From NCBI GenBank assembly GCA_030017825.1, contig JASEGW010000001.1:1-45614 (forward strand): 45,614 nucleotides of DNA, in the 5' to 3' direction. The DNA comes from a bacterium (GTDB lineage: Bacteria; UBA9089; JAHJRX01). The position numbers and the translations under genes were made by a program. Shown piece by piece: positions 2,991 to 43,283 of this stretch. Every line of letters starts with the position of its first letter. The stretch's first letter is position 1. The notes under the pieces were generated by a model. It was given only the letters and a program-made list of their open reading frames with translations, was not told where the DNA came from and did not search any database.

Positions 2991-3014
2991 CTTTGTTCAA
3001 AATTTTAAACAAAG
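2991..3014. repeat. Palindromic intergenic motif, copy 1 (CTTTGTTCAAAATTTTAAACAAAG)
   Basis: Read directly. The core 2994-3011 ends 18 nt before ATG 3030, with only GGAGG between. Confidence 0.9.
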
Positions 3015-3029
3015 TTATGGAGGAATGAA

Positions 3030-4568
3030 ATGCCTTATTTAGATTATGGTGGTGGTAGTTTAGAAGATGTATTGATGAGGAGGCTGGGAAGTGGAGGTCA
3101 GATGTTTACGCCTACTGGTGAAAGCCCTCCAGCACTTAGACAATTTGGTGAGATGTGGGAACCTGGTAAATCTATCATATCCCTTCCACCACCGGCTGCA
3201 GCATTAGGAGCAGCTGCTCCTGGTGGCGCTATGAAAATGTTTCAAAATCTTAGTCCATATATGCTGCAAATGGGTACTGCTTTAATGAGGGGAAGAGATC
3301 CTATGACTGGTGCCCCGACTGAGACAGTTGGAAGTCAGCTTGGTGGAATTGCATCAAAGGCTTTTGAAAGTCAAAGACTTAATGAAGCACTTCGTAAAAT
3401 GATAGCTTCACAGTTGAGTGGAGGTGGAAGTTTTAGTGAAGGCCAGCAAGTGGGATTATCCGGTGCTGATGTTGCTGGCCTTACTCCTGAACAGATTTCA
3501 GGATTATATGGCACTGGTTTACAATTAAGAGCTGCTGAACGTAAGGCTCCACTTGAGGCACTTGCAGTTATTTCTGAAGCATACTCAAAGATTATGAGTG
3601 GAGAGGCGAAGCCTGCTGAGATGGAGGCTCATCTTATGACTGCTGAGAAAGCACGTCAAGCTCTTCGTGATGCGCCTATTAAGTATGAAAATGAGCTATT
3701 TTTTAAGGTTGAGGCTTTGAAGAAGGCTGATGCTGAGATTGATGAGATTAGGCAAAGAACTAAAGCTAGTAAGGCTGCAGTTGAAGAAATTCCAATAGAG
3801 AGGAAGAAAAAGAAAGCAGAAACTGAAAAGATTGAGCAGGAAACTGAAGCAATTAAAGCCAAACTTGATCCTCAGCAGACTAGACTTCTTAAGTTTGCAG
3901 AAACTATTGGGTGGAAGGCAGTAGATGCAGGAAATGTCATTGAACTTCGTGATCAGGCTACTGGTGCTTTAATGACTACTTTACAAGTTGGTCCTAAACC
4001 TGAAGTTGCAGCTGAGGGTGAGAGAAGGAAGTTAAAATATACTGAAGAAGTATATAGTATAGTTGCACCTCGTTTGGTTCCAGTTTTAGAAGAACAATAT
4101 AAAGCAGCAGGAAAAGGAAGACAGGTTGAACTGAATCAGCTGCTTTCTATGTTACGCTCATACACAACTGGTAAAATAGATGCTGGCACTTTAATGTCAA
4201 AACTAAGTTCTGAGAATCAAAGTTTATTTGAGAAATTGGTAAATATTAGGATTAAAAATCCAGAACTGTCTGAACCTGAATTTGGAGGAATTGTCCGATC
4301 TCTTCTTGGTACTAAATCTGTTACACCAACTGAGTTAGTTCCGCCGCCTAAAGATAGAATAGAAACTCTTAAAGAGAGGATGAAGATAGGCGCAACTATT
4401 AGAGTTCCAACAGATGAAGAAATCACTGCTCAGTTGAAGGGGAAACCTCCTCAAGTATATGAATCACAACACTTTAGAGTCAAGTGGGACGGAATCAAAG
4501 GTATTATTACACGTAAACCACTGCCTACTACTGGGGTGCCTTCTGAATTATATCGTGGAACACCATAG
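3030..4568 (+). CDS. Internal virion/core protein candidate (gp15 position), coiled-coil rich
   Basis: GGAGG lies 7 nt upstream. The product is 512 aa with a K/E/A-rich central region. The call rests on synteny. Confidence 0.5.
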   Translation: MPYLDYGGGSLEDVLMRRLGSGGQMFTPTGESPPALRQFGEMWEPGKSIISLPPPAAALGAAAPGGAMKMFQNLSPYMLQMGTALMRGRDPMTGAPTETVGSQLGGIASKAFESQRLNEALRKMIASQLSGGGSFSEGQQVGLSGADVAGLTPEQISGLYGTGLQLRAAERKAPLEALAVISEAYSKIMSGEAKPAEMEAHLMTAEKARQALRDAPIKYENELFFKVEALKKADAEIDEIRQRTKASKAAVEEIPIERKKKKAETEKIEQETEAIKAKLDPQQTRLLKFAETIGWKAVDAGNVIELRDQATGALMTTLQVGPKPEVAAEGERRKLKYTEEVYSIVAPRLVPVLEEQYKAAGKGRQVELNQLLSMLRSYTTGKIDAGTLMSKLSSENQSLFEKLVNIRIKNPELSEPEFGGIVRSLLGTKSVTPTELVPPPKDRIETLKERMKIGATIRVPTDEEITAQLKGKPPQVYESQHFRVKWDGIKGIITRKPLPTTGVPSELYRGTP

Positions 4569-4576
4569 GAGATAAC

Positions 4577-7500
4577 ATGACTGAAGAAATTTTTATTCCA
4601 GTAGAAGAAAAGATGGGTAGAGCACCTGAGTTTATTCAGGGAGGAACTGAATCATTTGTACCTGTTGGGCCACTAAAATCAGCTGATATGCTTGATTATT
4701 TAAAAGAGCCAGTTGAGTGGGTTAAGTCTGGACTGGGTGGACTTGCAAGAGGAATGGGAGCTGTTTTTAAGACTGCAGCAGTTTTAATTCCAGGTGCTGA
4801 AGAAATTTTAAAGCCTAATATCACTGCACTTGAAGAAGCTACTGAATGGTGGGAACCTAAGGAAACTGCACCTGGACAGGTTAGTAAATGGGTTCGTAGT
4901 GCAGCACATTCTATAGGGCAATCTACTACAACTGGAATTATTGGAGCAGGTGTAGCTTATTCTGCTGGACTTATTGGACTTCCTGCTATGATTATTGGTG
5001 CTATTCTTTCAAAAGGCGGATTTTTTGGTGGAGCTGATTGGTATGATCTGACTAAAGATATTGAGAAGGCTGCTATAAATGCTGGTGCTACACCTGAAGA
5101 AATTAGGATCTTGCAGAGTGAATTTGCAGCATGGAAAGCAGCTCATGCAGCTGCTGAGGTGGTTGGTGAGATTGGGCCTGATTTAATTACAGCAAGGGTT
5201 ATTGGGCTGACAGGAAGCCCTCTTATTCGAGAACCAATTAAGCGCAGTATTATGTCTGTCTTTGGCGTATTCGCTAAAAAAATGGGCTGGGCTCAACTTG
5301 CTGAAGGTACTGGTGAACAGTTTACAACTGCAGTTCAATATAGAGCGACTGAAAAGATTGGTTTACCACAACCTTCATACTGGGATCAAGTTATTGATAC
5401 TGGTGCTGTTACTGCAATACAGACTGGATTTATGGCTGGCGTTGGTATTTCTGTAGCCAACCGTACTCGTGGTAGAAGTGTTGAAGCCTTTAAAAAAGAG
5501 ATGAAGCTGGAAATGTCAGCTAAGTTGGTTAAAGATGGAGTTGACAAGGATACAGCTGATACGATAGCTGATACAATTATAAAGAAGGCAACTAAGTCTG
5601 ATTTAGTTGATGCTGCTATTGCTGAACTTGAAAGTAGAGAGAAGGCTAAGAAAGCAACGAAGAAAGAGCGTGCTGTCAAGAAGGAGGAGAAGAAGGAGAA
5701 AGTAGTTGAAAAAGCAAGAGAAACAATTAATATAATAATGGCTCCTGAAGCTGTGACTAAGGAAGAATTTGTTGAAGTTAAAGAAGAGAAGCCAACAGCT
5801 CGTGAAGAAAAGCTTGCTAAATTAACAGCTGAAAGGAAAACTTATCTTGATAGTCTTGTAGAACAAGTTAAGGGTTTGGAAATAGCTGGGAGAATCAGAG
5901 TTGAGGAGCTATCAACAGATGAACAGCAATACCTTATAAGTAAGGGAGTTACATTTGATACTGATAGGATGGGCAAGCCTACTATTGGATATTCTCAAGA
6001 AAGAAGAGTTGAAGATTTAAGAACTAAAGTAAGAACGATTCGTGAAGAAAAACTTGCCAAACTAAAAGGTGAAGCACCAACAGGACTTATGCTTCCGGAA
6101 GCAGAACTTCCAAAGCAAGAAGTTTCATACATACGTCTTGAGCCTTCACTTGAGTCACCTGAAATTCCGAACGTTATTGTAAAAGATCTATCAGGACAGC
6201 CTGTTGTTTTCAATCCTGATATTCATACATTAGCTAATATTGACAAGGCAACTGCTAGACGAGATATTGGAAGCTGGGTACCAGTAGCAAAAGTTGAAAC
6301 AACTCGTGAAAGACGTATACGTATACTTAGAGAGGCTGGACGTCTACCTAAACCTACAGTAGAGGAAGTTACAGTACCAGGAGAGCGTGGTCCTCAAATT
6401 GAAGCTATCGCTGCTATTAAAAAGATGTTGCCTGGCTTCATTGAGCATGTTGCTGCTATGTCTAAGAAAGGCTGGAATATTGAGGACTTTGTGAATGATC
6501 CAGATGTTAGAGCAGACTTGGAGGAGATTGGTGTTCCTGAAGATCGATATTATGACCTGATTTTGGATGTTAAGGAAGAGTCAGGTGCTATGACATCTGT
6601 TGATATTCTTGATAAGCAGATCAGAGATGAACAGAGAAGATTGGATGAGGATTTCGCTGCCATTGATAAAATGAAAGATGAGGAAGCAATGCAGCGCTTT
6701 CCTGTTGAAGTTGATAATTATTATGATGCTGATCAAAAAAGATGGGTTCAGCTTGAAAAAGAAAACATAGCTGAAAATATTGAGCAGCAGTTTGTTAATC
6801 CTCCTCCAACTCTTGAGGAAGTACCTATTGTTGTTGAAGTATCTAAGGAGAAAAAGAAGGCATTTTCGTTAAAGGTAACTTCAAATACAGTTTGGTATCT
6901 TCCTGAAACTGAAGCTATGGCACAGCTTGATGCACTCAAGAGAGTGAAAATGGATTGGAACTCAGATATTGATACAATCCTCCACGCCCTTGGAATTCAT
7001 ACTACAGCTGCCTATCACACAAGTGGAACCGTTCCATTTGAAGCGCTTGGGAAGCTTAGAGATAACCTTGATTATTTTAAGAAGAATATGTCAAATGCAG
7101 AGTTTGCAAAAGTTGAAAATACTGTTGATAGCCTTCGTAAATATATGATAGCTGTCTCAGACACTATTAAAGCCACTGAACCTACGATAAGCGAAAAAGC
7201 TCCAATTAGACTGTCAGATATGGAAAAGTATAATTCTGCTGTTAAAAAAGTAATTGCTGAGGAACTGGTCAGATTAGTAAGTGCTGGAGGTAATGCAAAC
7301 TCTTTAATTAACTTCATTCTTGAGCGGAGAGAAAGGTTTACTGGATCACAAGCTGCTCTCGCTGAATTTTACAGTTCTCCCCATATTAGGCGGTATCTGG
7401 AGAAAGTTACTATGGCACTTGGCACTGGCTTCTATAAGTCTGGAGCATATTACTTATGGGCTGGTAAGAGTGAGGGAGATGTTGCAGGCCCTGCAGTTGT

Positions 7501-10500
7501 CTTCGAGCCATTCTATGCAGATAGGGGAATGGACTCAGTTGGTGAAGATATACTGCATGAAGTTACTCATGCATTAACTGCAGAACTTTTATATGACTCT
7601 AAAAGTTTTCGTGATAAAGTTTCCCAACTTCGACTTAGAGCTATGGATCAGCTTGGAGAGAATGATAGACGAGTCCTTTTTGGGCTTCAAAATGATGCAA
7701 GTGTATTCCACAGTCTGGGATTTGAAAATTTAGGGTTTTCTCGAGGGTGGGAATATGCATCTATATACTATGGCCTCACCAATGATAGGGAGTTTATTTC
7801 TGAGGTTTTTACATCTCCAGCAATGCAGGAGTTCTTATCTGCAATCCCTGTCGAAACCTCTCAAGAAGGAGTCTTCTCTAGTTTATGGCAGAAGTTTAAA
7901 GAGATTCTATCAGTATCTATTTTTGGAAAGCCTCCATCTGAGAGAGAATCGACACTTCTTGATGAAGCTCTTAAGATTGGGCACGAAGTAATTGAGGCAC
8001 AGGCTGCACATGCTGGTTTAGCATATGAAGGAAGAGAACGAAAAGAAGATGCTGCTACCCCCCGTATTAAATCTATCTCTATTGAAGATACTTTAAAGCA
8101 TCATCCTTTGAAAGGCTCAGGAGTTCATGCAGGCGTTGGAGGCCCACTTCATCAAACCGTACATATAAAAGAATCACCTATTGATGTACCTGTGTTAGCG
8201 ACATATGTAGAATCTCCATTATTTGCACTGCGTGACCACCCAGATGCTCTTAAATTTGCAGAGAGGGCAATTGAGGCATTAGGTATATGGTCATATAATA
8301 GGGGCATTGGACTTATGGAGGTTGATAGAATGGAGAGAAATTTATCTCAACCTGAAAGAGAAGAGGTCACTTCAATTATGAAGGAAATTGAGAATGGGGA
8401 AGTTATTGACCTCGACAAACTTGACCCCAAGATTAAACAGGGTGTTATTGATCTTCGTAAATTTCTTGACCTTTATAAAGAGAAGCACAAAAAATTTCTT
8501 AGGGAGTCATTAGTACTGGGTGCTAATTCAACTGAAGCTCGGATTCTTGCAGATGTCCTTATTGGTGGTAATAATGTTATTGATGCTACTAAGAAGTGGA
8601 ATAGATATGCTCGTGACTATAATTTAACAAGTCAAGATGAAAGTAGGATGGCTACCACTACTTATGCAAACGTGCTTGAATTACTTAAAGAGTGGAAGGA
8701 AATCGAAAACTTTGGTATCAAAGATTACATTACCCATGCAATGAGGGGATCAATCGCATTATTTGACTCAGAAGGTAGAGTTGTATCATTTGCTCAGACT
8801 AAGAAGAAAGCAGTTGATGAGGCGCTGAGATATTTACAGCAGAATCCAACTATTGACTCTCTAACAGTTGACACTACTTACCGTCTTGATAAAGACTTTC
8901 AAACACTTGTTTCTCAAAAGTATTATAGGGTAATGAAGAGCAAGATTGCTAAAATCATTGATCAGCATACTAAGGATATAGATAAAGATCTTGCTGAAAG
9001 ACTAAAGGCTGTATTGCCAGGCAGAGGTATTGCAATCAAACCTCAAAAAGTTTGGTCTCAGTTTTTACAGGAACGTGAAGAAGTACTGCCTGGAGAGAAA
9101 GACATATTTGATATTCTCCCTTTATACGTTCATAGTATAGAGAAGAAGCACGCTATTGATCCTTACATTATTCAGTTAAGAGATCATCTATCCGACTTTA
9201 ATGATAGACCAAATGTTAAAAAGATGTTGGAAGATCAGTTAGAAGCGATTAGAGGTCAATATAGTGTTGGTGATGCAATAGTCGATGATCTAATGAAGAA
9301 GTTTGGATTTGAAACATCTTTTGCTTATGCTCGAGGTACTGGTGCTGCTCGTGTCTTGATTACTAATTTAAAGTTAGGATATAGGCCAGTTGCTGCTTTA
9401 ATTAATTTACTATCAGGCATGGGGCATGTCTGGGTCAAAACTAGTGCTAGGTATATGATAGAGGCAAATCGTATGTTGTCGACTAAGGGAGGAGAGGATT
9501 TCATCAAAAAGAACGCAGCCTCACTAGGTACTTCAATAGTTGAAAGTATGGGTGGAGATCTGGAGAATAGGCTGAGATGGTATTCTCCGCTGAAAATATT
9601 TCAAGCACCTGAGCTTCCAAACAGAAAGCTTTCTTTTATGACATCTTACCTATTTGCCAGAGGAGAATTTGGGCATGATGAAGAAACTGCACTTGAATTC
9701 GCTAAGAGATCTGTTGACCTCCAGGAATTTAATTATAGTGTTGCTGCCGTTCCAAAAATTATGAGGGGGCCAACTGGAAGGACAGTATTTCAATTCAAAC
9801 CCTACCTTGTAAAAGAGATTGAGTTTATTCGTGGTTTGAAGGGAGCAAATCAGTGGGCCAAGTATTTGACAATGCAGGCTGTAATTGGTGGACCCAGAGG
9901 TTTAATGGTCACACTTAAGAGCCTTCCCGTAATAGCAGCAATAGGAGGAGTGGGGTGGTTGGATGAGTTAGATACATGGCTTAATAATAATTATCCACGT
10001 CTATCTAGGGGAGTATTTGGATTCTTCGGCATTGATGCTTCAGCTCCTGCTGCATTTCAGTTTCCTGAAAAAGCTGCAGATTGGGCAGGTGTTTTAATAT
10101 CTGATATTGTCAGGTTTGGAAAGGATGTAGTTCAGCCATTTATAGATGGAGAAAGCTATATTTGGGAGGATATTAAGAAATATACTAAAGGTACTATTCC
10201 AATATGGAGGCTCTGGTGTGACGCCTTCAATGGTATAATGAGTGAAGATGGTTGGATTCTTGACGATAAAGGAGATAATAAATATAAAGTGGAAGACTGG
10301 ACTGATATTCTTAAGATGGTTGGCGGCTTCAAACCTCTAAAAGCATCTGTACAGGAGCTTGAAGTCAGAATGGCAGAAGAGTTAGAGAAAAGGGAAAGAA
10401 AGCAAGCTAATAAGATTGTTGAGCAGATTGTGAAGCGGAGTAGAATGATTGATGTAGAAATTGTTACTGATGAATTAATTGAAGAAGTTGGTACTCATGC

Positions 10501-10642
10501 TATCAGCCCTGATGCTATTTTAGCTGCGATTGAAAGAAGCCATCTTGACCCTCAAACTAAACAACTGTTAAAGGCCAAGATGGCTAGGAAAATGAATTTG
10601 TGGCAGCGACAACTTCCTACCAGAGAGTTCAGAGGGTATTAA
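4577..10642 (+). CDS. Giant 2021-aa virion/ejection-type protein with an HExxH zincin-like motif (gp16 position)
   Basis: A single uninterrupted ORF with SD AGGAGA. It has N-terminal hydrophobic Gly/Ala segments, a K/E-rich linker and HEVTH at nt 7556-7570 (about residue 994). It is the last gene of the structural arm. Confidence 0.55.
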   Translation: MTEEIFIPVEEKMGRAPEFIQGGTESFVPVGPLKSADMLDYLKEPVEWVKSGLGGLARGMGAVFKTAAVLIPGAEEILKPNITALEEATEWWEPKETAPGQVSKWVRSAAHSIGQSTTTGIIGAGVAYSAGLIGLPAMIIGAILSKGGFFGGADWYDLTKDIEKAAINAGATPEEIRILQSEFAAWKAAHAAAEVVGEIGPDLITARVIGLTGSPLIREPIKRSIMSVFGVFAKKMGWAQLAEGTGEQFTTAVQYRATEKIGLPQPSYWDQVIDTGAVTAIQTGFMAGVGISVANRTRGRSVEAFKKEMKLEMSAKLVKDGVDKDTADTIADTIIKKATKSDLVDAAIAELESREKAKKATKKERAVKKEEKKEKVVEKARETINIIMAPEAVTKEEFVEVKEEKPTAREEKLAKLTAERKTYLDSLVEQVKGLEIAGRIRVEELSTDEQQYLISKGVTFDTDRMGKPTIGYSQERRVEDLRTKVRTIREEKLAKLKGEAPTGLMLPEAELPKQEVSYIRLEPSLESPEIPNVIVKDLSGQPVVFNPDIHTLANIDKATARRDIGSWVPVAKVETTRERRIRILREAGRLPKPTVEEVTVPGERGPQIEAIAAIKKMLPGFIEHVAAMSKKGWNIEDFVNDPDVRADLEEIGVPEDRYYDLILDVKEESGAMTSVDILDKQIRDEQRRLDEDFAAIDKMKDEEAMQRFPVEVDNYYDADQKRWVQLEKENIAENIEQQFVNPPPTLEEVPIVVEVSKEKKKAFSLKVTSNTVWYLPETEAMAQLDALKRVKMDWNSDIDTILHALGIHTTAAYHTSGTVPFEALGKLRDNLDYFKKNMSNAEFAKVENTVDSLRKYMIAVSDTIKATEPTISEKAPIRLSDMEKYNSAVKKVIAEELVRLVSAGGNANSLINFILERRERFTGSQAALAEFYSSPHIRRYLEKVTMALGTGFYKSGAYYLWAGKSEGDVAGPAVVFEPFYADRGMDSVGEDILHEVTHALTAELLYDSKSFRDKVSQLRLRAMDQLGENDRRVLFGLQNDASVFHSLGFENLGFSRGWEYASIYYGLTNDREFISEVFTSPAMQEFLSAIPVETSQEGVFSSLWQKFKEILSVSIFGKPPSERESTLLDEALKIGHEVIEAQAAHAGLAYEGRERKEDAATPRIKSISIEDTLKHHPLKGSGVHAGVGGPLHQTVHIKESPIDVPVLATYVESPLFALRDHPDALKFAERAIEALGIWSYNRGIGLMEVDRMERNLSQPEREEVTSIMKEIENGEVIDLDKLDPKIKQGVIDLRKFLDLYKEKHKKFLRESLVLGANSTEARILADVLIGGNNVIDATKKWNRYARDYNLTSQDESRMATTTYANVLELLKEWKEIENFGIKDYITHAMRGSIALFDSEGRVVSFAQTKKKAVDEALRYLQQNPTIDSLTVDTTYRLDKDFQTLVSQKYYRVMKSKIAKIIDQHTKDIDKDLAERLKAVLPGRGIAIKPQKVWSQFLQEREEVLPGEKDIFDILPLYVHSIEKKHAIDPYIIQLRDHLSDFNDRPNVKKMLEDQLEAIRGQYSVGDAIVDDLMKKFGFETSFAYARGTGAARVLITNLKLGYRPVAALINLLSGMGHVWVKTSARYMIEANRMLSTKGGEDFIKKNAASLGTSIVESMGGDLENRLRWYSPLKIFQAPELPNRKLSFMTSYLFARGEFGHDEETALEFAKRSVDLQEFNYSVAAVPKIMRGPTGRTVFQFKPYLVKEIEFIRGLKGANQWAKYLTMQAVIGGPRGLMVTLKSLPVIAAIGGVGWLDELDTWLNNNYPRLSRGVFGFFGIDASAPAAFQFPEKAADWAGVLISDIVRFGKDVVQPFIDGESYIWEDIKKYTKGTIPIWRLWCDAFNGIMSEDGWILDDKGDNKYKVEDWTDILKMVGGFKPLKASVQELEVRMAEELEKRERKQANKIVEQIVKRSRMIDVEIVTDELIEEVGTHAISPDAILAAIERSHLDPQTKQLLKAKMARKMNLWQRQLPTREFRGY

Positions 10643-11168
10643 TCTTTGGTTCTACTCCATCTTTTCCAAATGTTTTCTTGAGTAGAAAATTTCCAGCAAT
10701 ATGATGGATGACAATTCCCTCAGGCTTCATAAATCCTGGAGCAGCCATACTTCCATTACTAAGAAGCTCACTTAGTATTTCATGGACTGGAGGAGGAAAG
10801 TCTCCTGTCCAGAGTGTAGGAACTACACTACAACAGGCAGGACGAGTGTAGGGATCGCCCCACTTCTTTAAGTTAAATAGAGAAAACACCCTCTCTTTTA
10901 TTCCATACCCTCTGTTAATCTTATACCCCCACCACTCTCCAAAATGCCAACCAGGGCCAAGCTCTAATAACTCATCTTTATTTTCATGCGCCCACTTTGC
11001 AAAGCCGTGGTTGTCTTTTTCAGGAGTTATCCATTGAGTTCTTGATCCAACTAGAAAAACGCCTTCATTAGAAATATAGATGCTCCCATTAGTTCCATCA
11101 ATTTTCTCTGTTACAACGCAGTCTCTTGAGTATCTATAAATCTTTGGGAATGCTATAAAGTCGGTCAT
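10629..11168 (-). CDS. Minimal ATP-dependent RNA (or DNA) ligase-like nucleotidyltransferase
   Basis: Motif I is TEKIDGTN (KxDG). Also present are FGEWWG, PEGIVIHH and LLKKTFGK, in the covalent nucleotidyltransferase order. SD AGGGGTG; palindrome copy 2 lies just upstream. Confidence 0.65.
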   Translation of the reverse strand: MTDFIAFPKIYRYSRDCVVTEKIDGTNGSIYISNEGVFLVGSRTQWITPEKDNHGFAKWAHENKDELLELGPGWHFGEWWGYKINRGYGIKERVFSLFNLKKWGDPYTRPACCSVVPTLWTGDFPPPVHEILSELLSNGSMAAPGFMKPEGIVIHHIAGNFLLKKTFGKDGVEPKINTL

Positions 11169-11178: not shown

Positions 11179-11202
11179 CTTTGTTTAAAATTTTAAACAT
11201 AG
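11179..11202. repeat. Palindromic intergenic motif, copy 2
   Basis: CTTTGTTTAAAATTTTAAACATAG. The core 11182-11199 lies 13 nt from start 11168 (minus strand). Confidence 0.9.
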
Positions 11203-11424: not shown

Positions 11425-11753
11425 TACTCTCCCTCCTTTTTTAGTTTAATAATCTCAATGGGCGGAAGCGCCTTATATCTTCCCTTCTTATCCCTTAATT
11501 TTTTAGCTGGCCATCTATCATCTGCCCACATTGCCAATGGAGTTCCAATAATAGAACCAAAGACGTTAAATAATATATAAGTCATATCTGTTATATATAG
11601 TGTAATCTCTAATGAAATCAAGCCAGTTATTAAACCACTGAATAAGGCAGCTTGTATTTTATGACCACTTGACACTCTTCTTAAATAGAAGACTACCAAT
11701 ATGTCATCAGTTACGCTTAATGTAAACACTATCAAGCCTATTAGCCAACTCAT
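11424..11753 (-). CDS. Small integral membrane protein (about 3 TM segments)
   Basis: Hydrophobic stretches (WLIGLIVFTLSV, AALFSGLITGLISLEITLYI, ILFNVFGSIIGTPLAMW). SD GGAGGG. Confidence 0.55.
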   Translation of the reverse strand: MSWLIGLIVFTLSVTDDILVVFYLRRVSSGHKIQAALFSGLITGLISLEITLYITDMTYILFNVFGSIIGTPLAMWADDRWPAKKLRDKKGRYKALPPIEIIKLKKEGE

Positions 11754-12956
11754 CTACCCTCCAATCCCATACTTTTCTTCCATTGGCTTTGTACCTTTAT
11801 AAACAAGCACAGGGTCATTTCCAATAGTTGCTATTGTTATAACCTTCATCTGCTCTAATGTTTTAATGACAGCATTCATATCTTCAAGATCTGCGTCATT
11901 ATGAAACTCCCTTATTAAATCAGACGTCCTAACATTATGATTCAGTGCGATATAGCTCCATGCTCTCACTAACACATCAGCCATCTTTGCTTTTCCAACT
12001 CCACTAAAAACATAAGACATTCTTTTTTCAACATCTAACATAAATCCTATTGCTCTTTCTAAGTCCCTCAGTTTCAAAACCATATCATCTGTTCTTGAAA
12101 CATTTGCTATTATGCTTAATTTTAGTGCATGAATCGCTCTCCTCTCAATGTATCCACTCAATCTCGTATCACTGAAGGGTGGGTTATCATCCTGTGCAGG
12201 GTACCACTGATTCCAAAAATCTAAATACTCTTGTGATACTTTAAAGCTGCCGGCGAGCATTAACATCTGTTCTAAATCTGTCTGTAATACTTCCCTCAAT
12301 TCCAACTCCTCCTTTGTTAAAAAAGGACAGGTAACTGACTTAGCTTTTCTCTTTTCATACACTAAGATCATTCGAGCTGTAAGGCCGCCGCCGATAGCAT
12401 CAGGAGGTAACGTACTCCTTAATAATTCAGGGGTGGTTGCACCTAATAAATTTACCCATACTCCAATAAGCTCATCGGTGCCCTGATTTTTAGTACGATA
12501 TGTCCAGCGGTCTTTGCAGTCATACCAGTCGCATAAATCAGCCATCATCTGCAAATTGTTATAGCCTAAAAACACAGTCAGCTCTTGACTATGAACGGTT
12601 AGTGAACAGTGGATTAGAGGACGACCTTGCACATCAATCTGTGTATTACTACTCAGCTTCAAATCTTTAATTAAGGCTTCTCGAGTTATTGCTTCAGCAG
12701 CCAATCTAATTCCTAAATCTCTAAGAAATGGATAGCCAAGATTCATGGCGGTTCCCTTTCTCGATCCTGAAGGTCCAACTAATACAACATATAGATTTGG
12801 GAATATATTAAAGTGTCCCCAAGGAAGGCTGCACTTCCTCTGAAGCATCGCTGCAATAGTGGAGATAGCCGTCCACAATCTAAAGCTCCTCCTGGGCTCG
12901 GTATTTTCAGTGAATTCTAAAAATGAGTCTATCCAATCATTTAGTTTTCTTGCCAT
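11754..12956 (-). CDS. P-loop NTPase, putative replicative helicase (DUF3987/VirE-like by eye)
   Basis: Walker A VLVGPSGSRKGTAM. The product is 400 aa and lies next to the polymerase. The family assignment is unverified. Confidence 0.5.
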   Translation of the reverse strand: MARKLNDWIDSFLEFTENTEPRRSFRLWTAISTIAAMLQRKCSLPWGHFNIFPNLYVVLVGPSGSRKGTAMNLGYPFLRDLGIRLAAEAITREALIKDLKLSSNTQIDVQGRPLIHCSLTVHSQELTVFLGYNNLQMMADLCDWYDCKDRWTYRTKNQGTDELIGVWVNLLGATTPELLRSTLPPDAIGGGLTARMILVYEKRKAKSVTCPFLTKEELELREVLQTDLEQMLMLAGSFKVSQEYLDFWNQWYPAQDDNPPFSDTRLSGYIERRAIHALKLSIIANVSRTDDMVLKLRDLERAIGFMLDVEKRMSYVFSGVGKAKMADVLVRAWSYIALNHNVRTSDLIREFHNDADLEDMNAVIKTLEQMKVITIATIGNDPVLVYKGTKPMEEKYGIGG

Positions 12957-15833: not shown

Positions 15834-15842
15834 AATTAATTT

Positions 15843-15866
15843 CCTTTGTTTAAAATTTTAAACACA
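15843..15866. repeat. Palindromic intergenic motif, copy 3
   Basis: CTTTGTTTAAAATTTTAAACACAG. The core 15846-15863 lies 12 nt from polymerase start 15833. Confidence 0.9.
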
Positions 15867-15873
15867 GTTATCG

Positions 15874-16172: not shown

Positions 16173-16191
16173 CCAAAAAATTTTCCATGTT

Positions 16192-17538
16192 CTAAATACT
16201 ATAATCATAGCTCTTATACCTCCCAAATCTCCCTTCGTGTACTCTTAGCATAAAGGAGTCTTTATATTCCCGACTCAACTCATACCCAAAAGCCTGCATT
16301 CCTAAGTTAGACGCAGCCAGTAGTGTATTTCCACTCCCAAGAAACGGAACCATAACTCTACTTCCTGCATTAGCAAATGTACTTAAAATATCCTCCATCA
16401 TTTCAATAGGCCGCTCAGTTTGATGTATACGTCTTGCTGGAGCAACCCAAGGGAAGTCAAACAAGTTTGATCTTGTTTTTTTAACAATCCCACTTCCTTT
16501 GTGTGCATAGAAAAACATTTCGTAATCATTAGATAGGTATAAATCTGGCTGCATAGTTTGGCCCCTTGGTTTCGCCCAGATTCCAGGAATTCTCCTACCT
16601 TTAAATCCAACCTGTCTCATCATTTGATAAACTGGATCGAACCAGGGCTCAGGTCCAAACCAGGCTATAATCCAGCCACTTGGAGATAATACTCGGTAGC
16701 ATTGTTGAATAGTTTTCAACATAAAACTTGGATATTCATCTTCCATAACCTCATTATAATACTTCATATGAGGCTCTCTTGGCCCCCTTAGCTTTCTGAC
16801 TGAAAGTAAGTCTATCGCATATGGAGGATCTAACTCAACAAGGTCGATTGAGCCATTAGGTACGTTTTCTACCTCTTCATGAAAGTCTCCAATTATAAAG
16901 CTATCACACAGCTTCATCAGTTCAACAGGTACACTTCCCCTGTTCTCTTCAACCCTTTTAGCCAGTTCAGCTTTGACAAGCGTCTCCTGCATCATCATTA
17001 ACAGTTTACGAGCATCATCTTTCGTTTTACATTCACGAAGTTCAGGAATTTTCTCAACAGCATGCGCCAGCATTATATCTCCAACGATACTTGCAGGACT
17101 TTTAACTAATAATGAAGCAGTATCACGCTTACTCCACCCCTTTGCACCTGGACTTGTTGAAGTTTTTTCACCATGAATTGCTACTTGTAGATTATGTATC
17201 TGCTCACACAACCTTATTTTCTCAAGCCATGATAGGTCGAGACGATGCATATTTTCGGCTAACTCAATACTTTTATGCTCAAACTCTGTTAATTCTCCGT
17301 GGTAAATTCTACAAGGGATTAATTGAGTATTGAGTTCTTTTAGTGCCCTATATCGTCTACCGCCGGCTAGTAATAGATAGCCAGTTGAAGTTTGTTTTAC
17401 TGCGATTGGCTGAATGATGCCTTCAGCTTTAAGTGAAGCCTTCAATTCTTCTAAGTTTCCGTAGTCTTCCCTTGTTCTTTCACCTTCACTAATCAAATCT
17501 ATAGGAATCATATCAAGTTTAACTTCGCCCAAGCTCAT
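16192..17538 (-). CDS. ParB-like nuclease domain fused to a beta-class DNA methyltransferase (N6A/N4C type)
   Basis: The N-terminus reads IQPIAV...LLAGGRRYRALKEL. DPPY comes before the FLGSGNT AdoMet motif. The AGGAGG SD fits ATG 17538, which overlaps the upstream TGA. Confidence 0.8.
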   Translation of the reverse strand: MSLGEVKLDMIPIDLISEGERTREDYGNLEELKASLKAEGIIQPIAVKQTSTGYLLLAGGRRYRALKELNTQLIPCRIYHGELTEFEHKSIELAENMHRLDLSWLEKIRLCEQIHNLQVAIHGEKTSTSPGAKGWSKRDTASLLVKSPASIVGDIMLAHAVEKIPELRECKTKDDARKLLMMMQETLVKAELAKRVEENRGSVPVELMKLCDSFIIGDFHEEVENVPNGSIDLVELDPPYAIDLLSVRKLRGPREPHMKYYNEVMEDEYPSFMLKTIQQCYRVLSPSGWIIAWFGPEPWFDPVYQMMRQVGFKGRRIPGIWAKPRGQTMQPDLYLSNDYEMFFYAHKGSGIVKKTRSNLFDFPWVAPARRIHQTERPIEMMEDILSTFANAGSRVMVPFLGSGNTLLAASNLGMQAFGYELSREYKDSFMLRVHEGRFGRYKSYDYSI

Positions 17539-17753
17539 CACTGTCCTCCTAATAATGCAGCTAATTTTCTCTTCTGCTCTAAACTTAATCCATCCAATAA
17601 CTTATCCATAGAGGCATCTGCTTTTGCAGCTGCTTTTTTGACAGCTGGCTTTTCCTTCTTCATCCTTCTACTCGCTCTTAACTCCAAAATTTTAGCTTGC
17701 AGTTCCTCAGTTGACATTTGACTAATACTTTTTTTGAGTTCTTCAAGTATCAT
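17538..17753 (-). CDS. Small lysine-rich hypothetical protein (71 aa)
   Basis: SD GGAGGTG. No motif recognised. Confidence 0.5.
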   Translation of the reverse strand: MILEELKKSISQMSTEELQAKILELRASRRMKKEKPAVKKAAAKADASMDKLLDGLSLEQKRKLAALLGGQ

Positions 17754-18529: not shown

Positions 18530-18553
18530 CTATGTTTAAAATTTTAAACACAG
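18530..18553. repeat. Palindromic intergenic motif, copy 4
   Basis: CTATGTTTAAAATTTTAAACACAG, core 18533-18550. Confidence 0.9.
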
Positions 18554-23455: not shown

Positions 23456-23483
23456 AACTGTGTTTAAAATTTTAAACACAGTT
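23456..23483. repeat. Palindromic intergenic motif, copy 5 (perfect 28-mer AACTGTGTTTAAAATTTTAAACACAGTT)
   Basis: Read directly. The sequence is self-complementary over 28 nt. Confidence 0.95.
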
Positions 23484-24948: not shown

Positions 24949-24972
24949 CTTTGTTCAAAATTTTAAGCAGAG
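24949..24972. repeat. Palindromic intergenic motif, copy 6 (degenerate: CTTTGTTCAAAATTTTAAGCAGAG)
   Basis: Read directly. The core is 24952-24969. Confidence 0.8.
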
Positions 24973-27100: not shown

Positions 27101-27124
27101 CTTCGTTTAAAATTTTAAACACAG
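27101..27124. repeat. Palindromic intergenic motif, copy 7
   Basis: CTTCGTTTAAAATTTTAAACACAG, core 27104-27121. Confidence 0.9.
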
Positions 27125-27200: not shown

Positions 27201-27224
27201 CCTTGTTTAAAGTTTTAAACAAAG
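27201..27224. repeat. Palindromic intergenic motif, copy 8 (CCTTGTTTAAAGTTTTAAACAAAG)
   Basis: Core 27204-27221, with one central mismatch. Confidence 0.85.
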
Positions 27225-28953: not shown

Positions 28954-28982
28954 ATTATAACTCTGTTTAAAATTTTAAACAA
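28954..28982 (-). promoter_or_regulatory. Sigma70-type promoter whose -35 element and spacer are formed by palindrome copy 9 (TTGTTT-17-TATAAT)
   Basis: Minus strand: TTGTTT aaaattttaaacagagt TATAAT. Confidence 0.5.
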
Positions 28983-28984
28983 AG
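28961..28984. repeat. Palindromic intergenic motif, copy 9
   Basis: CTCTGTTTAAAATTTTAAACAAAG, core 28964-28981, located in the divergent control region. Confidence 0.9.
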
Positions 28985-31931: not shown

Positions 31932-31935
31932 AAGG

Positions 31936-32295: not shown

Positions 32296-32309
32296 AAAAG
32301 GGAGAATGT

Positions 32310-34481: not shown

Positions 34482-34505
34482 CTATGTTTAAAATTTTAAA
34501 CAAAG
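34482..34505. repeat. Palindromic intergenic motif, copy 10
   Basis: CTATGTTTAAAATTTTAAACAAAG, core 34485-34502, starting 1 nt after the terminase stop. Confidence 0.9.
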
Positions 34506-37625: not shown

Positions 37626-37649
37626 CTATGTTTAAAGTTTTAAACAAAG
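37626..37649. repeat. Palindromic intergenic motif, copy 11 (CTATGTTTAAAGTTTTAAACAAAG)
   Basis: The core 37629-37646 ends 15 nt before portal ATG 37662. Confidence 0.85.
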
Positions 37650-41769: not shown

Positions 41770-41809
41770 GTCGTAGGTTAAAGTAGTATAATTAGAAAGA
41801 GAGTGCCTC

Positions 41810-41836
41810 GCCCCTGGGCCACTCAGGGGCTTTTAT
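41810..41836 (+). terminator. Rho-independent terminator
   Basis: GCCCCTG gggccact CAGGGGC followed by TTTTAT. Confidence 0.7.
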
Positions 41837-41858
41837 CAAAACACTGGAGGAGTTTAAA

Positions 41859-43217
41859 ATGCCTGACAATGCTTTTTTAGGAATGCGTGGAACTGGTGAT
41901 TGGGCTACAGACCAGAGGCCAAAATCTTGGAGAGAATTAATTCTCTTCTTATATCCAAATGGTTCTGTGCCGTTGACAGCAATTATGTCAAAGATGAAGG
42001 AAGAGAAAGTGACTGATCCACAGTACTACTGGTGGACGAAGAAACTACCGGAACAGGCTGGGGCGGTTACAAACGTTTATACTAATAGTGGACTGAGTGC
42101 TCTTTATAGTGCTACATATCCAAATGGTGGAACTGGAGCGGCGGCTGGATTTACTGTCTATGTGAAGATGGCTGAGTTAGCTGCATCTGAATTTAGAGTG
42201 GGACATCAGGCTCTTATGAGATGTTTGACTGATTCTTATTTAGATGTGAACGGTAAAGTTACTGCTCGGACTTTGGCTGGTGCAAATTCTTACCTAACTG
42301 TTAAGTTACTGGAAGCTGACGATAACAGCTTTGGAAAGTTCGGAGCTCAGGGGCGCACCCTCGCAGCCTGTAACCGAATCATGGTTGTAGGTAATATCAA
42401 TGAGGAAGGTGCTGTAATGCCTGGCAGTCTTGGGTATAACCCTGTAAAGTATTTCAACTATACCCAGATTTTCAGAACGCCTCTAAGCATCACTCGTACA
42501 GCTCGGGAAACGAGACTTCGTACTGGCGATGCCTATAAAGAAATGAAGCGTGAAGCTCTGGAACTGCACGGTATTGAGATGGAGAAAGCACTCATCTTTG
42601 GAATTCCAACTGAAAATGCTGGGGGATCTTCGGATCAGAAACCTGAGAGAACAACTCAGGGAATTGCTAGTTTCATTAAAGCCTATGTTGCTGCTAATTT
42701 CGATGATTATCGGCTGAACTCTGGTTATGCGGGTAAAGCTTGGGATGCAGCTGATGGTGGAGAAGCCTGGCTTGATTATTTCCTGGAGCAGGTTTTCAGA
42801 TTTGGTAGTGCTGAGAAGTTGGCCCTTTGCGGTTCTGGTGCTCTTTTAGGCCTGAATCAGTTGGCGAGGAGTGGTGGACATATTAACCTGGAGCCACGAG
42901 CTGCTGCTTATGGTATCAAGGTTATTGAGTGGATCACACCTTTCGGTAGCATCTACTTAAAGACCCATCCCCTTATGAGCCAGGAAGTAACTACCCGCAA
43001 TGCCATGATTCTTCTTGAGCCTAAGAATTTAGTTTATCGGTTCATCACTGATACAATCTTCTTTGGTGAAGGTGAGGCAAAGCAGGCTGGGCCTGGAACT
43101 AACAGTGGCCGTAAAGATGCCACAAATGAGGAGTTCTTGACTGAGTGTGGTCTTGAGCTGTGGCATCCCGATACCTTCATGATGCTTGATGGAGTCGGTA
43201 AAAACAGTGCTGTTTAA
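41859..43217 (+). CDS. Major capsid protein
   Basis: The product is 452 aa. Its gene follows the scaffold and decoration genes and is followed by a terminator hairpin. The call rests on position and size. Confidence 0.7.
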   Translation: MPDNAFLGMRGTGDWATDQRPKSWRELILFLYPNGSVPLTAIMSKMKEEKVTDPQYYWWTKKLPEQAGAVTNVYTNSGLSALYSATYPNGGTGAAAGFTVYVKMAELAASEFRVGHQALMRCLTDSYLDVNGKVTARTLAGANSYLTVKLLEADDNSFGKFGAQGRTLAACNRIMVVGNINEEGAVMPGSLGYNPVKYFNYTQIFRTPLSITRTARETRLRTGDAYKEMKREALELHGIEMEKALIFGIPTENAGGSSDQKPERTTQGIASFIKAYVAANFDDYRLNSGYAGKAWDAADGGEAWLDYFLEQVFRFGSAEKLALCGSGALLGLNQLARSGGHINLEPRAAAYGIKVIEWITPFGSIYLKTHPLMSQEVTTRNAMILLEPKNLVYRFITDTIFFGEGEAKQAGPGTNSGRKDATNEEFLTECGLELWHPDTFMMLDGVGKNSAV

Positions 43218-43234
43218 CAATTAACCTATGCAAG

Positions 43235-43266
43235 GCTGGCAGCTGGAAGTGGCTGTCAGCTTTGTT
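43235..43266 (+). terminator. Terminator candidate after the capsid gene
   Basis: GCTGGCAGC tggaagtg GCTGTCAGC, followed by TTTGTTC. That T-rich run is the left arm of palindrome copy 12. Confidence 0.5.
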
Positions 43267-43283
43267 CAAAATTTTAAACAAAG
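43260..43283. repeat. Palindromic intergenic motif, copy 12
   Basis: CTTTGTTCAAAATTTTAAACAAAG. The core 43263-43280 ends 13 nt before ATG 43294. Confidence 0.9.

Follow-up and report, generated by a model that had tools for sequence, protein, structure and literature searches.

Distribution of the palindrome in the phage genome

Which factor recognizes a short palindrome that recurs twelve times in a single phage genome? The window, namely, the whole stretch of DNA analysed here (45,614 nt), comprises the complete genome of a lytic-type phage, with its genes in two divergent arms. From the window sequence alone, the original prediction had described twelve near-identical copies of the element and offered three readings, namely, an operator for a dimeric regulator, a middle/late promoter or an RNA-level translational operator. 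A search of the window with TGTTTAAAATTTTAAACA, allowing up to three mismatches, returned exactly 12 sites (Table 1), all with zero to two mismatches, compared with 0.09 expected from shuffled sequence, which never contained more than one match; the presence of twelve copies was thus confirmed. Six cores were perfect, four had one mismatch (two of these at central positions) and one had two mismatches. The coordinates originally assigned to the 24-mers were correct for 11 copies, but those of the third (15843‒15866) should read 15844‒15867; the perfect 28-nt palindrome at 23456‒23483 was also correctly described.

Table 1. Positions of the palindrome copies and of the candidate cognate protein in the window
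Feature	Position	Strand	Core start	Core or palindrome	Context
Copy 1	2991..3014		2994	TGTTCAAAATTTTAAACA	Between 313-aa and 512-aa genes; start codon (3030) 18 nt past core
Copy 2	11179..11202		11182	Perfect core	13 nt upstream of RNA-ligase-like gene (start 11168, minus)
Copy 3	15844..15867		15847	Perfect core	13 nt upstream of DNA polymerase gene (start 15833, minus)
Copy 4	18530..18553		18533	Perfect core	Right past stop of gene 18558‒18992 (minus); next gene ~100 nt on
Copy 5	23456..23483		23461	Perfect over 28 nt	30 nt upstream of Pam3_gp32-like gene (start 23430, minus)
Copy 6	24949..24972		24952	2 mismatches	Abuts preceding G+C-rich hairpin; 42 nt upstream of gene start 24909 (minus)
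Copy 7	27101..27124		27104		~+16 to +33 of 12/12 sigma70-type promoter 27172‒27144 (minus); 12 nt before GTG start 27091
Copy 8	27201..27224		27204		32 nt upstream of ‒35 hexamer of promoter 27172‒27144; abuts preceding hairpin
Copy 9	28961..28984		28964	Perfect core	Midway between divergent promoters 28841‒28813 (minus) and 29117‒29145 (plus)
Copy 10	34482..34505		34485	Perfect core	Begins 4 nt past terminase large-subunit stop; next start codon 34525
Copy 11	37626..37649		37629		15 nt upstream of portal gene (start codon 37662)
Copy 12	43260..43283		43263		Past major capsid gene and hairpin; 13 nt upstream of 54-aa gene (start 43294)
Candidate cognate protein (ParB-methyltransferase)	16192..17541	minus			449 aa; predicted ParB N-terminal CTPase fold 9‒98, helix-turn-helix ~138‒164, N6_N4 methyltransferase 232‒429
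Helix-turn-helix of ParB-methyltransferase	17050..17130	minus			Residues ~138‒164, KRDTASLLVKSPASIVGDIMLAHAVEK; covaries with palindrome half-site across lineages

As had been claimed, no copy lies in coding DNA (12 of 12 outside predicted genes), in a genome of which only approximately 5% is non-coding. Copies are also spread such that no stretch beyond ~8 kb is without one; the largest palindrome-free gap measured 8.2 kb (p = 0.09) for the window, compared with 7.8 kb (p = 0.006) for the related Desulfofustis phage. The palindrome repeat is therefore a real, non-random, dispersed and strictly intergenic feature.

With respect to neighbouring elements, eight cores end 12‒30 nt before start codons (3030, 11168, 15833, 23430, 27091, 34525, 37662 and 43294), three abut G+C-rich hairpins (24952, 27204 and 43263) and three lie near consensus sigma70-type early promoters, one of which is flanked by cores 27104 and 27204, with core 28964 placed between a divergent pair; all three counts agree with those of the original prediction. 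No sigma70-like promoter was found near the other nine palindromes, and cores 27204 and 28964 have no gene immediately downstream. The statement that the motif marks essentially every operon boundary was too strong, as it is missing from at least 12 further intergenic gaps with a length of 25 nt or above and the operon boundaries themselves are only presumed. The palindrome lacks the features of an intrinsic terminator, its stem being A/U-rich with no T-run after it. For three copies, a separate hairpin upstream could use the 5′ half of the palindrome as its U-tract.

The core itself is palindromic, but its outer flank is asymmetric: in the direction of transcription, CTN precedes the core and AAG(G) follows it. 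This flank overlaps the stop codon and Shine-Dalgarno context. The location just upstream of Shine-Dalgarno sites is more simply explained by the ~95% coding genome, in which a 24-bp element fits only into the space that separates a stop codon from the following ribosome-binding site. Chromosomal parS sites, in contrast, tolerate coding positions, and the strictly intergenic placement of the palindromes suggests an additional link to gene expression, for which the ParB loading model described below gives no account.

Lineage-specific palindromes in related phages

For comparison, a DNA-polymerase profile was used to collect 79 related viral contigs. The family comprises uncultured phages of about 45‒50 kb, and the element is not confined to the window: at least 45 of the ~80 relatives have their own repeated palindrome of 15‒25 bp (for example, GTTCAAAWTTTGAAC, ATTAAATWATTTAAT, GGTAATTWAATTACC and GTCCCAAWTTGGGAC), similarly located after a stop codon and ahead of the following Shine-Dalgarno site. 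In most lineages, palindromy extends to the very centre, with one nucleotide unpaired. Close relatives keep the outer TGTTYA/TRAACA and the centre drifts, and in relatives at ~80% identity the site positions are conserved but the site sequences drift. The hairpin/palindrome/promoter arrangement of copy 8 is kept in one relative (L114), which also has a site at the copy 9 position. Sites are likewise kept at the positions of copy 10, after the terminase gene (five close-relative contigs), copy 11, before the portal gene (the Desulfofustis phage in addition to six contigs from close relatives), and copy 12, after the major capsid gene.

No significant dyad was detected at 37 loci of unrelated phages, and about one-third of the family loci gave no repeated palindrome by the detectors used. 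Microcystis phage Mel-JY34, which belongs to the family and is syntenic but distant, encodes a ParB-methyltransferase and likewise had no detectable repeated palindrome. Another family with ParB/Srx-methyltransferases (Vibrio phage 1.213.O and relatives) had no associated palindromes, indicating that the ParB-methyltransferase fusion alone does not imply such sites. Among the genomes of 185,579 bacterial and archaeal species (one each, a collection from which the true host may be absent), all 24 occurrences of the 22-mer were single copies, located in unrelated taxa and without phage homology, which argues against a host repeat or an obvious host regulon.

The palindrome as a probable double-stranded DNA site

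The position of eight of the 12 sites shortly before start codons, the complementary changes of the two arms across lineages and the asymmetric flank would all suit an RNA hairpin 5′ of the ribosome-binding site, serving as a processing site, a 5′ stabilizer or a translational operator, as in the case of T7 RNase III sites. The predicted RNA hairpins are, however, weak (‒4 to ‒6.2 kcal/mol, with z-scores of ‒0.7 to ‒2.3), complementarity runs on through the would-be RNA loop, and two of the cores have no gene directly downstream. Furthermore, the 87 core deviations in 117 oriented sites, as read on the sense strand, include 15 that are G.U-compatible, compared with 19 A.C and 53 transversions, such that 72 break pairs. 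The palindrome thus has neither the stable hairpin nor the G.U-tolerant substitutions of a structured RNA, and we regard an RNA element as highly unlikely. Together, the palindromy to the centre, the deviations not favouring RNA pairing and the weak hairpins point to a double-stranded DNA site for a two-fold symmetric protein, rather than an RNA operator or a promoter. The same symmetry bears against a phage-specific promoter (middle/late, or for an unrecognized phage RNA polymerase) with transcription starting at the 3′ edge, a reading drawn from the TAAAAT within the core, the location directly before many genes, the three copies after terminator-like hairpins and a 2021-aa virion protein of no known function that could hide a polymerase. 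This ‒10-like hexamer is missing from the versions in relatives, such as GTCCCAAWTTGGGAC and GTGAAAWTTTCAC, neither an RNA polymerase nor a sigma factor was detected among the window proteins, and sigma70 promoters lie elsewhere, with one copy placed within the 5′ leader of such a consensus promoter. If the element were instead an activator site, its distance of 12‒18 nt from the start codon would leave no space for a downstream core promoter. Of the readings considered, a promoter appears the least probable. Short, identical and intergenic copies at module borders are also expected of a neutral or selfish repeat (MITE- or REP-like) or a module-boundary recombination scar, and the promoter-stem-loop cassettes (PeSLs) of T4-type phages are comparable repeats; a host-regulator site belongs to the same group of explanations. 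Such origins are very doubtful, given that positions are conserved among relatives at ~80% identity with drifting sequences, that in every lineage the palindrome is kept with its sequence changed in concert, and that the 22-mer has the host distribution described above.

The ParB-methyltransferase as candidate binding protein

A candidate for the two-fold symmetric protein is encoded within the window, in the form of a 449-aa ParB-methyltransferase (Table 1) that the original prediction had already listed among possible binders. In this protein, Pfam matches were obtained to ParB_N (2.7e-13) and N6_N4_Mtase. Residues 7‒190 align to residues 5‒194 of Myxococcus ParB (E 5e-13) and also to Noc, and the motifs QPIAV, GGRRYRA and ENMHRLDL are all present. 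Across 51 homologues, the GGRR..A and EN..R boxes, DPPY and F.GSG are invariant, including residues G57, R59, R60, A63, E93, N94 and R97. The sequence thus predicts the N-terminal CTPase fold of ParB with its arginine-rich box, followed by a helix-turn-helix. The methyltransferase domain is of the beta-class N6_N4 (DPPY), N6-adenine type; it stands in place of the canonical ParB C-terminal dimerization domain, which is absent.

The AlphaFold model of the ParB-methyltransferase (pLDDT 87) has helices at model residues 135‒142 and 146‒161; since the model sequence begins three residues in, these correspond to ~138‒145 and ~149‒164 of the 449-aa window protein. In Foldseek comparisons, the N-terminal half matched Noc and ParB over ~200 columns, with the Noc-DNA complex 7OL9 among the matches; for the C-terminal half, the matches were CcrM and M.RsrI. 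Of the 80 related contigs containing the polymerase gene, 79 have the ParB-methyltransferase gene, a core gene, next to it. No ParA family was present among the reported Pfam/PHROG matches of the window proteins.

Covariation of the helix-turn-helix and the half-site

Sequence comparison of 43 lineages, in pairs that are not phylogenetically independent, indicated that the helix and the site covary across lineages. The 11 best 12-aa windows of the ParB-methyltransferase all fell in the helix-turn-helix, with partial r values of 0.27‒0.35 after control for whole-protein distance. The helix-turn-helix windows ranked first among ~2,600 windows of eight shared protein families, in a screen that covered proteins encoded within ~10 kb of the polymerase gene, such that a small regulator encoded elsewhere, for example, in the early region, lies outside it. 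Compared with 833 equally variable control windows (mean 0.045, sd 0.09, maximum 0.317), the helix-turn-helix (mean 0.334, maximum 0.388) exceeded them all, and in a partial Mantel test the observed helix-site value was reached in none of 5,000 permutations. Among close pairs, helix divergence was 0.49 when the half-sites differed and 0.30 when they were the same, at equal background divergence (p ~1e-6). The second-ranked covariation was that of a primase segment (residues 250‒270) and a 144-aa protein (n = 20), with partial r values of ~0.32‒0.37.

Specific residues also followed the half-site. His at helix position 3 accompanied GGTA half-sites in 6 of 6 lineages, compared with 0 of 37 others, in three separate clades; a T[DGN]AS helix was paired with an ATTAAAT half-site in 7 of 7 lineages, and an SKAT helix with GTTTAA in 4 of 4. 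For one lineage (L011), GGTA-type sites were predicted from the helix, and five were found in 22 kb, against a background of 0.4.

An operator or roadblock for another dimeric phage regulator, similar to a stoperator or to a global-repressor site and gating blocks of the two divergent arms, would share the double-stranded DNA symmetry and the location at gene-block boundaries; in this case, the ParB helix would covary only indirectly. The clustering of three sites at consensus early promoters, which L114 shares, the many small early proteins without assigned function and the appreciable covariation of further protein segments with the half-site all fit such a regulator. However, a search of 50 small proteins for helix-turn-helix, ribbon-helix-helix or repressor families gave no match at E <= 0.01, and the ParB helix-turn-helix is the top covarying segment, above all equally variable controls. 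The Pam3_gp32-like protein fails to track motif switches in close relatives (L060 compared with L078), most palindromes are far from any sigma70-like promoter, and a strictly lytic lifestyle is predicted for the closest relative that has been described (PMC10370329). We therefore consider another regulator unlikely, if less so than the explanations weighed above. The general class put forward originally, an operator for a dimeric DNA-binding protein, is favoured, and the comparative data point to the ParB-methyltransferase within it.

Proposed role of the palindromes

On balance, the sequence evidence favours the twelve palindromes being parS-like double-stranded DNA docking sites for the phage's own ParB-methyltransferase. 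The link between this protein and the sites is correlative, and binding to the cognate palindrome is suggested by the helix/half-site covariation. We propose physical binding, NTP-dependent (CTP) sliding, methylation in cis and an effect on transcription as putative activities of the ParB-methyltransferase. In the proposed mechanism, a dimer would recognize the outer half-sites TGTT[T/C]A ... T[A/G]AACA via two helix-turn-helix motifs, with the A/T-rich centre as a spacer. By analogy with ParB/parS and KorB/OB, clamps would nucleate or load at the palindromes and, in the NTP-bound state, may spread from there across the neighbouring few kilobases; this loading would give the fused methyltransferase favoured access to the phage's own chromosome. 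The three palindromes at strong early promoters could support KorB-like modulation of early transcription, a regulatory role that is possible. Each phage lineage would have evolved its own pair of site and helix.

More tentatively, the palindromes may be loading sites for a DNA-sliding methyltransferase, which would confine modification in cis to DNA with the phage 'address'. ParB CTPase/helix-turn-helix clamps at ~12 lineage-specific sites, at most ~8 kb apart, would carry the N6-adenine methyltransferase along the DNA, and the cis modification would protect or mark phage DNA. With site and helix diversified, methylation would not be shared with co-infecting relatives.

If the docking-site model is true, it would provide the first cis-acting target and mechanism for the abundant phage ParB-methyltransferase fusions, which are among the commonest ParB-like architectures in phages (PMC12704722). 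The lineage-specific candidate sites offer a testable model of site-dependent loading, spreading and cis-restricted methylation, or of KorB-like silencing. The helix/half-site pairs would also represent a natural specificity code for the ParB-type helix-turn-helix (His for GGTA, GG for GTTC, SKAT for GTTTAA and T(D/G/N)AS for ATTAAAT). Similar orphan palindromes, such as the Cluster O 17-bp repeats, may be explained likewise, and a protein that methylates only address-tagged DNA would be a useful tool.

Comparison with known systems

As in the ParB-parS and Noc-NBS systems, the candidate protein combines a predicted CTPase-fold N-domain, in which the GxRRxxA and ENxxR boxes are intact, with a ParB/Noc-like helix-turn-helix. 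The palindromes of 16‒18 bp, several per replicon, have outer arms, TGTT(T/C)...(A/G)AACA, that resemble those of parS (TGTTNCACGTGNAACA). Unlike parS, the centre is A/T-rich and 1‒2 bp longer, and the sites are genome-wide and all intergenic instead of clustered near the origin. The phage system also differs in having no ParA, in the methyltransferase that replaces the C-terminal dimerization domain and in the replicon, a lytic-type phage in which binding and CTP dependence of the ParB-methyltransferase are putative.

KorB of the IncP plasmid RK2 is a ParB-family helix-turn-helix CTPase with ~12 palindromic operators (OB) across the replicon, some of them adjacent to a promoter and some remote from all promoters; it functions both as a sliding clamp and as a long-range repressor. 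PMC13229309 refers to KorB as a clamp. The 12 dispersed palindromes, three of them around consensus early promoters and nine not near sigma70-like promoters, may be comparable to this arrangement; the differences are the lack of a KorA or IncC partner, the methyltransferase fusion, the phage rather than plasmid replicon and a repressor role that is putative.

Cluster O mycobacteriophages carry more than 30 copies per genome of 17-bp dyad repeats (TGTTCGGNNNCCGAACA), for which the authors, noting that the function is unknown and that the repeats are not tied to promoters, predict binding of a dimeric protein (PMC4351075). Both systems have dispersed palindromes in non-temperate phages, and the Cluster O arms are almost identical to those of the motif of one relative (L034), TGTTCGA-AAA-TCGAACA. 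Corndog, of Cluster O, encodes gp90 with ParB_N and a weak helix-turn-helix, but no methyltransferase domain. In contrast to the present family, Cluster O is an unrelated phage group with a high-G+C host, about one-third of its repeat copies are in coding DNA, and no link between a protein and these repeats has been proposed.

The Cluster A stoperators are likewise many short sites, for a repressor, in short intergenic gaps of both genome arms, and their specificity co-evolves with the binding protein (PMC6550527 and PMC9283540). Unlike the palindromes, they are asymmetric (13‒17 bp), oriented with transcription and bound by the monomeric immunity repressor of temperate phages. Identity with stoperators was rejected, as the core here is symmetric with only the flank asymmetric, and no repressor or integrase was seen.

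Finally, phage fusions of a ParB CTPase with an N6_N4 methyltransferase are reported to be frequent, with a role given as unknown, 'perhaps in anti-defense' (PMC12704722). The 449-aa protein has the same domain architecture. That survey gives no DNA site, whereas the family described here adds a ParB-type helix-turn-helix and candidate cognate sites.

Twelve intergenic palindromes in the phage genome

A search of the window with the core TGTTTAAAATTTTAAACA, allowing up to three mismatches, returned exactly the 12 sites of the original prediction, compared with 0.09 expected in shuffled sequence, where the maximum was 1. Six cores were perfect, and the rest had one or two transitions or were altered at the central pair of positions. 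The palindrome reached into its flanks as CTN-core-NAG, to a total of 24 nt, and the 28-nt palindrome claimed for one site was also found; the predicted coordinates held with a single exception, which was off by one (15844–15867 instead of 15843–15866). As had been noted, all 12 sites lay outside the predicted genes, the non-coding share of the window being approximately 5% after allowing for ORFs absent from the greedy gene list, and eight cores ended 12–30 nt 5′ of a start codon. That the element marks every operon boundary was an overstatement, since it is missing from a dozen or more other gaps that measure at least 25 nt. No stretch longer than approximately 8 kb lacked a site (maximum gap, 8.2 kb; p = 0.09), and the maximum gap in Desulfofustis phage MD01 was 7.8 kb (p = 0.006); in each of these genomes the longest gap is taken up by a giant virion-protein gene, where there is no intergenic space. 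Three of the window's sites lie around its early promoters. One of them lies 29–32 nt upstream of the −35 element of the strongest promoter, and both this spacing and the position of the site between divergent promoters were kept in a relative with approximately 80% identity. Close relatives also carry a palindrome copy at the position of an intrinsic terminator of the window, 71–80 nt before the capsid gene, where the window itself has no copy.

The window is a complete, circularly closed phage genome, because it has an exact terminal direct repeat and one ORF crosses the ends; an identical ParB-methyltransferase protein is on record for a 45,614-bp NCBI MAG contig. The genes are laid out in two divergent arms of roughly 17 and 27 kb, which may be transcribed largely from the central control region, the only place where perfect or near-perfect sigma70 promoters with an extended −10 TG occur. 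Searches of the window proteins detected neither an RNA polymerase nor a sigma factor, and likewise no integrase or recognisable repressor. The 2021-aa protein, which closes the structural arm and has homologues of 1577–1894 aa at the same position in relatives, gave only weak PHROG matches of unknown function and no Pfam or PDB sequence match, and a hidden RNA polymerase sought in it with PHROGs, Pfam and PDB sequences yielded nothing informative. The HNH endonuclease ORF shares 143 nt with the 3′ end of the DNA polymerase ORF, and may be a homing-endonuclease insertion or have a mis-set start. A search for near-identical DNA among GenBank phages gave no match and no close relatives; the nearest GenBank phage was MD01 (polymerase identity 38%, shared gene order), which is predicted to be strictly lytic (PMC10370329).

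Coordinates of features in the window and in compared phage sequences
Sequence	Feature	Position	Strand	Details
Window	Terminal direct repeat	1–16 and 45599–45614		16 nt, TTCAGCTGGAGGAGCA
Window	Early/replication arm	~28,600 down to 10,629	minus	RNA-ligase-like gene, primase, HNH endonuclease, DNA polymerase, ParB-methyltransferase, Sak4, exonuclease
Window	Structural arm	29,175 through ends to 10,642	plus	terminase, tail fibre, SU10-like portal, scaffold, capsid, 512-aa and 2021-aa proteins
Window	2021-aa protein	4577–10642	plus	
Window	HNH endonuclease ORF	12941–13429	minus	
Window	DNA polymerase ORF	13287–15833		
Window	ParB-methyltransferase, 449 aa	16192–17541	minus	ParB_N, residues 9–98 (QPIAV, GGRRYRA, ENxxRxDL boxes); beta-class methyltransferase, residues 232–429 (DPPY)
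Window	28-nt palindrome	23456–23483		
Window	Sigma70-type consensus promoters	27172–27144, 26234–26206, 28841–28813	minus	central control region
Window	Sigma70-type consensus promoter	29117–29145	plus	central control region
Window	Intrinsic terminator	41810–41830	plus	strong; 9-bp stem, 7 G-C pairs, then TTTTAT; between scaffold and major capsid genes
L016	Copies of CTTCAAAWTTTGAAC	e.g. 3511, 7674, 13574, 18483		
L034	Iteron-like cluster	6473–6600		overlapping GTGAACGAAGTTCAC / GAAGTTCAC repeats
MD01 (L007)	Tandem repeats	31759–32330		approximately nine, 42 nt each, core AATCTTAAATCATAAGAAGTA
MD01 (L007)	‘Capsid protein’ gene	31110–33392	minus	
Mel-JY34 (L190)	ParB-methyltransferase	11543–12838		
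Mel-JY34 (L190)	Polymerase	13952–16384		
1.213.O (L191)	TGTGA-N6-TCACA sites	1739, 4891, 5985, 7631, 12397, 14192, 15757, 30583, 32636, 39006		
Corndog (L085)	gp90	9425–10933	minus	

Recurrence of the element in related phages

When 79 viral contigs of approximately 45–50 kb, retrieved with a polymerase profile, were scanned as had been proposed, the element recurred in many of these relatives with a lineage-specific sequence. Contigs near the window carried the same motif, or degenerate forms such as TGTTYAWWNWWTTRAACA, at unchanged positions, namely, behind the terminase gene, 15 nt upstream of the portal gene, on either side of the capsid gene and within the early control region. In these contigs the outer 5–6 bp of each arm were kept, while the centre drifted. 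The site upstream of the portal gene was conserved within the close clade with three mismatches allowed, and under a strict perfect-palindrome test was present in two of 54 distant relatives, i.e. not conserved there. More distant lineages had different repeated palindromes of their own: GTGAAAWTTTCAC in contig L002, CTAT-GTCCCAAWTTGGGAC-ATAG in the Desulfofustis phage (nine copies), GTTCAAAWTTTGAAC in several lineages, TGTTCGA-AAA-TCGAACA in contig L034, and, in others, GTTAATWATTAAC, GGTAATTWAATTACC, ATTAAATWATTTAAT, GTAAAATWATTTTAC, TTAACAAWTTGTTAA and TGTTCA-N5-TGAACA. The same dyad scan gave no significant match in 37 loci from unrelated phages, indicating that the family signal is not a by-product of the method.

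Other repeats were seen in these genomes. In the group of L016, L017 and L021, every copy has the sequence CTTCAAAWTTTGAAC on one and the same absolute strand and is asymmetric at the outermost base; one copy seems to precede a minus-strand gene, so the asymmetry may be tied to the DNA strand and not to transcription. The iteron-like cluster of L034, which is distinct from its dispersed palindromes, could be an origin or control region, and the MD01 ‘capsid protein’ bearing the tandem repeats is likely to be a repetitive protein of the fibre or decoration type.

Candidate binding protein and covariation with the half-site

Among 50 small window proteins, no known DNA-binding fold was detected at E ≤ 0.01, zinc ribbons excepted. 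The ParB-methyltransferase gene adjoins the polymerase gene in 79 of 80 related polymerase-bearing contigs, and its product has more than 1,100 homologues in metagenomes, with nucleotide-binding and catalytic motifs invariant across 51 homologues. Residues 7–190 align with residues 5–194 of Myxococcus ParB (E 5e-13) and also with Noc. The AlphaFold model (pLDDT 87) places a helix-turn-helix at model residues 135–161, approximately 138–164 in the window protein, and in Foldseek the N-terminal half matched Noc and ParB, among them a Noc–DNA complex, and CcrM and M.RsrI were the matches for the C-terminal half. Judged by alignment and predicted fold, the protein, with both a ParB N-domain and a helix-turn-helix, goes beyond a methylase with a ‘ParB-like nuclease domain’. 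With neither a ParA partner nor the ParB C-terminal domain, and with dispersed sites, it does not constitute a partition system. The methylome paper on pink berries contains no data for this phage.

In 43 lineages whose half-site was defined, half-site distance was compared with the distance of each 12-aa window, overall divergence being controlled, in proteins encoded within approximately 10 kb of the polymerase gene. Within the ParB-methyltransferase, the best eleven windows all fell on the helix-turn-helix (residues 139–161). This segment ranked first among approximately 2,600 windows drawn from eight protein families common to the loci (partial r 0.39), above all 833 equally fast-evolving windows (mean 0.045, sd 0.09, maximum 0.317), and the observed value was reached in none of 5,000 permutations of a partial Mantel test. 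In close pairs matched for background divergence, the helices diverged by 0.49 when the half-sites differed and by 0.30 when these were the same (p ~1e-6). The runner-up proteins (Pam3_gp32-like, primase and a 144-aa protein) do not track motif switches among close relatives. A second, weaker peak in a methyltransferase loop (residues 325–340) tracked clade, not motif, and was discarded as evidence.

With lineages ordered by the polymerase tree, the associations recurred, apparently independently. His at the third helix position accompanied GGTA half-sites (6/6 lineages versus 0/37, in three clades), x-G-G accompanied GTTC in both major clades, SKAT accompanied GTTTAA (4/4) and T(D/G/N)AS accompanied ATTAAAT (7/7); the helix segment is KSPASIVGDIML in the window protein, with TGTTTA half-sites, and the segment of the L013 type, KSHASLIKDIQR, is predicted to prefer GGTAAA half-sites. 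For contig L011, left out when the rule was derived, GGTA-type sites were predicted from the helix, and five were found in 22 kb against a background of 0.4; this check is only partly independent, because L011 and L013 have identical helices.

Nature of the element

The palindromes are probably double-stranded DNA sites for some phage-encoded symmetric protein. Of the functions originally offered, an operator for a dimeric phage DNA-binding protein is favoured as to the kind of site, by the symmetry, the weak hairpins and the kept half-sites, while the evidence for binding itself is correlative. In most lineages complementarity continued to the centre, leaving a single base unpaired, and a hairpin loop gives no reason for such pairing. 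Kept arms around a drifting centre, as in close relatives, are the pattern of two helix-turn-helix contacts with a spacer between them. An RNA translational operator would depend on hairpins that are predicted to be weak (−4 to −6.2 kcal/mol; z-scores −0.7 to −2.3), and the deviations from core symmetry mostly break RNA pairs: on the sense strand of 117 sites orientable by the downstream gene, we counted 15 G·U against 19 A·C and 53 transversions. RNA pairing is not being preserved. The outermost flank is mildly asymmetric (CTN upstream, AAG(G) downstream), which coincides with the upstream gene's stop codon and the Shine-Dalgarno start; the element simply occupies the sole gap open in a compact genome.

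The suggestion of a phage promoter, which drew on the −10-like TAAAAT, is not supported: other lineages have lost this hexamer, the symmetry of the element gives no direction, and neither a cognate polymerase nor a sigma factor was detected. The site at 27104 falls within the leader of a sigma70 consensus promoter. Host sites of the CRP, Rex, TyrR and LexA types were dropped, since the motif varies with phage lineage and no genome has multiple copies: among bacterial and archaeal genomes (one per species, 185,579 species), the 22-mer occurred only as 24 isolated single copies, in unrelated taxa and without phage homology. Single copies in Fibrobacter (six stretches of approximately 50% G+C without phage homology, L087, L095, L098, L100, L105 and L109, from four MAGs) may represent a conserved host regulatory site unrelated to the phage. 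The P2 Ogr/Delta activator site, TGT-N12-ACA, is centred at −55, and was rejected despite its resemblance because the elements here end 12–30 nt from start codons.

Proposed mechanism

Correlation leads us to favour, by a modest degree, the palindromes as cognate parS-like sites of the phage ParB-helix-turn-helix-methyltransferase. Dimers, like those of ParB, Noc and KorB, would nucleate on the palindromes and, when NTP-bound, spread over the flanking DNA, thereby delivering the methyltransferase in cis to the phage chromosome; the sites near promoters could regulate early transcription in the manner of KorB. We infer all of this, from binding, NTP dependence and sliding to the methylation target and the regulatory effect. 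Against these parS-like sites stands Microcystis phage Mel-JY34 (PP438425), a cultured, syntenic, distant family member (GC 59%), which has a ParB-methyltransferase yet no detectable repeated palindrome, as does a second ParB/Srx-methyltransferase family devoid of such sites. That the sites are strictly intergenic suggests some connection with gene expression, for which the parS-like model gives no explanation.

Comparison with known systems

That second family is represented by Vibrio phage 1.213.O (MG592583), an unrelated siphovirus with 10 intergenic copies of the CRP-type dyad TGTGA-N6-TCACA at gene boundaries (0.06 expected). Relatives of its ParB/Srx-methyltransferase had no such sites in 37 loci, which now serve as a negative control; extension to this family was therefore rejected, and another factor, possibly host CRP, is implied for the dyad. 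Consistent with the original prediction, which recognised no described motif, no description of the motif or the family trait was found in the literature, and a literature search with the sequence string gave no match. According to a 2025 survey of the ParB-CTPase fold, fusions of ParB to N6_N4 methyltransferases are common in phages, with neither a function nor a DNA site known (PMC12704722). The feature is real and comes with a specific, testable mechanism.

The palindromes differ from stoperators, which are asymmetric, monomer-bound and found in temperate phages, and from the start-associated sequences of Cluster K phages. They resemble the KorB/OB system of RK2 in number and spread of sites. 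In Mycobacterium phage Corndog, gp90 combines ParB_N with a weak HTH_23 match and a C-terminus of no known kind. Finally, the palindromes resemble the unexplained 17-bp dyad repeats of Cluster O mycobacteriophages, TGTTCGG-N3-CCGAACA (PMC4351075), which are nearly equal to the L034 palindrome.
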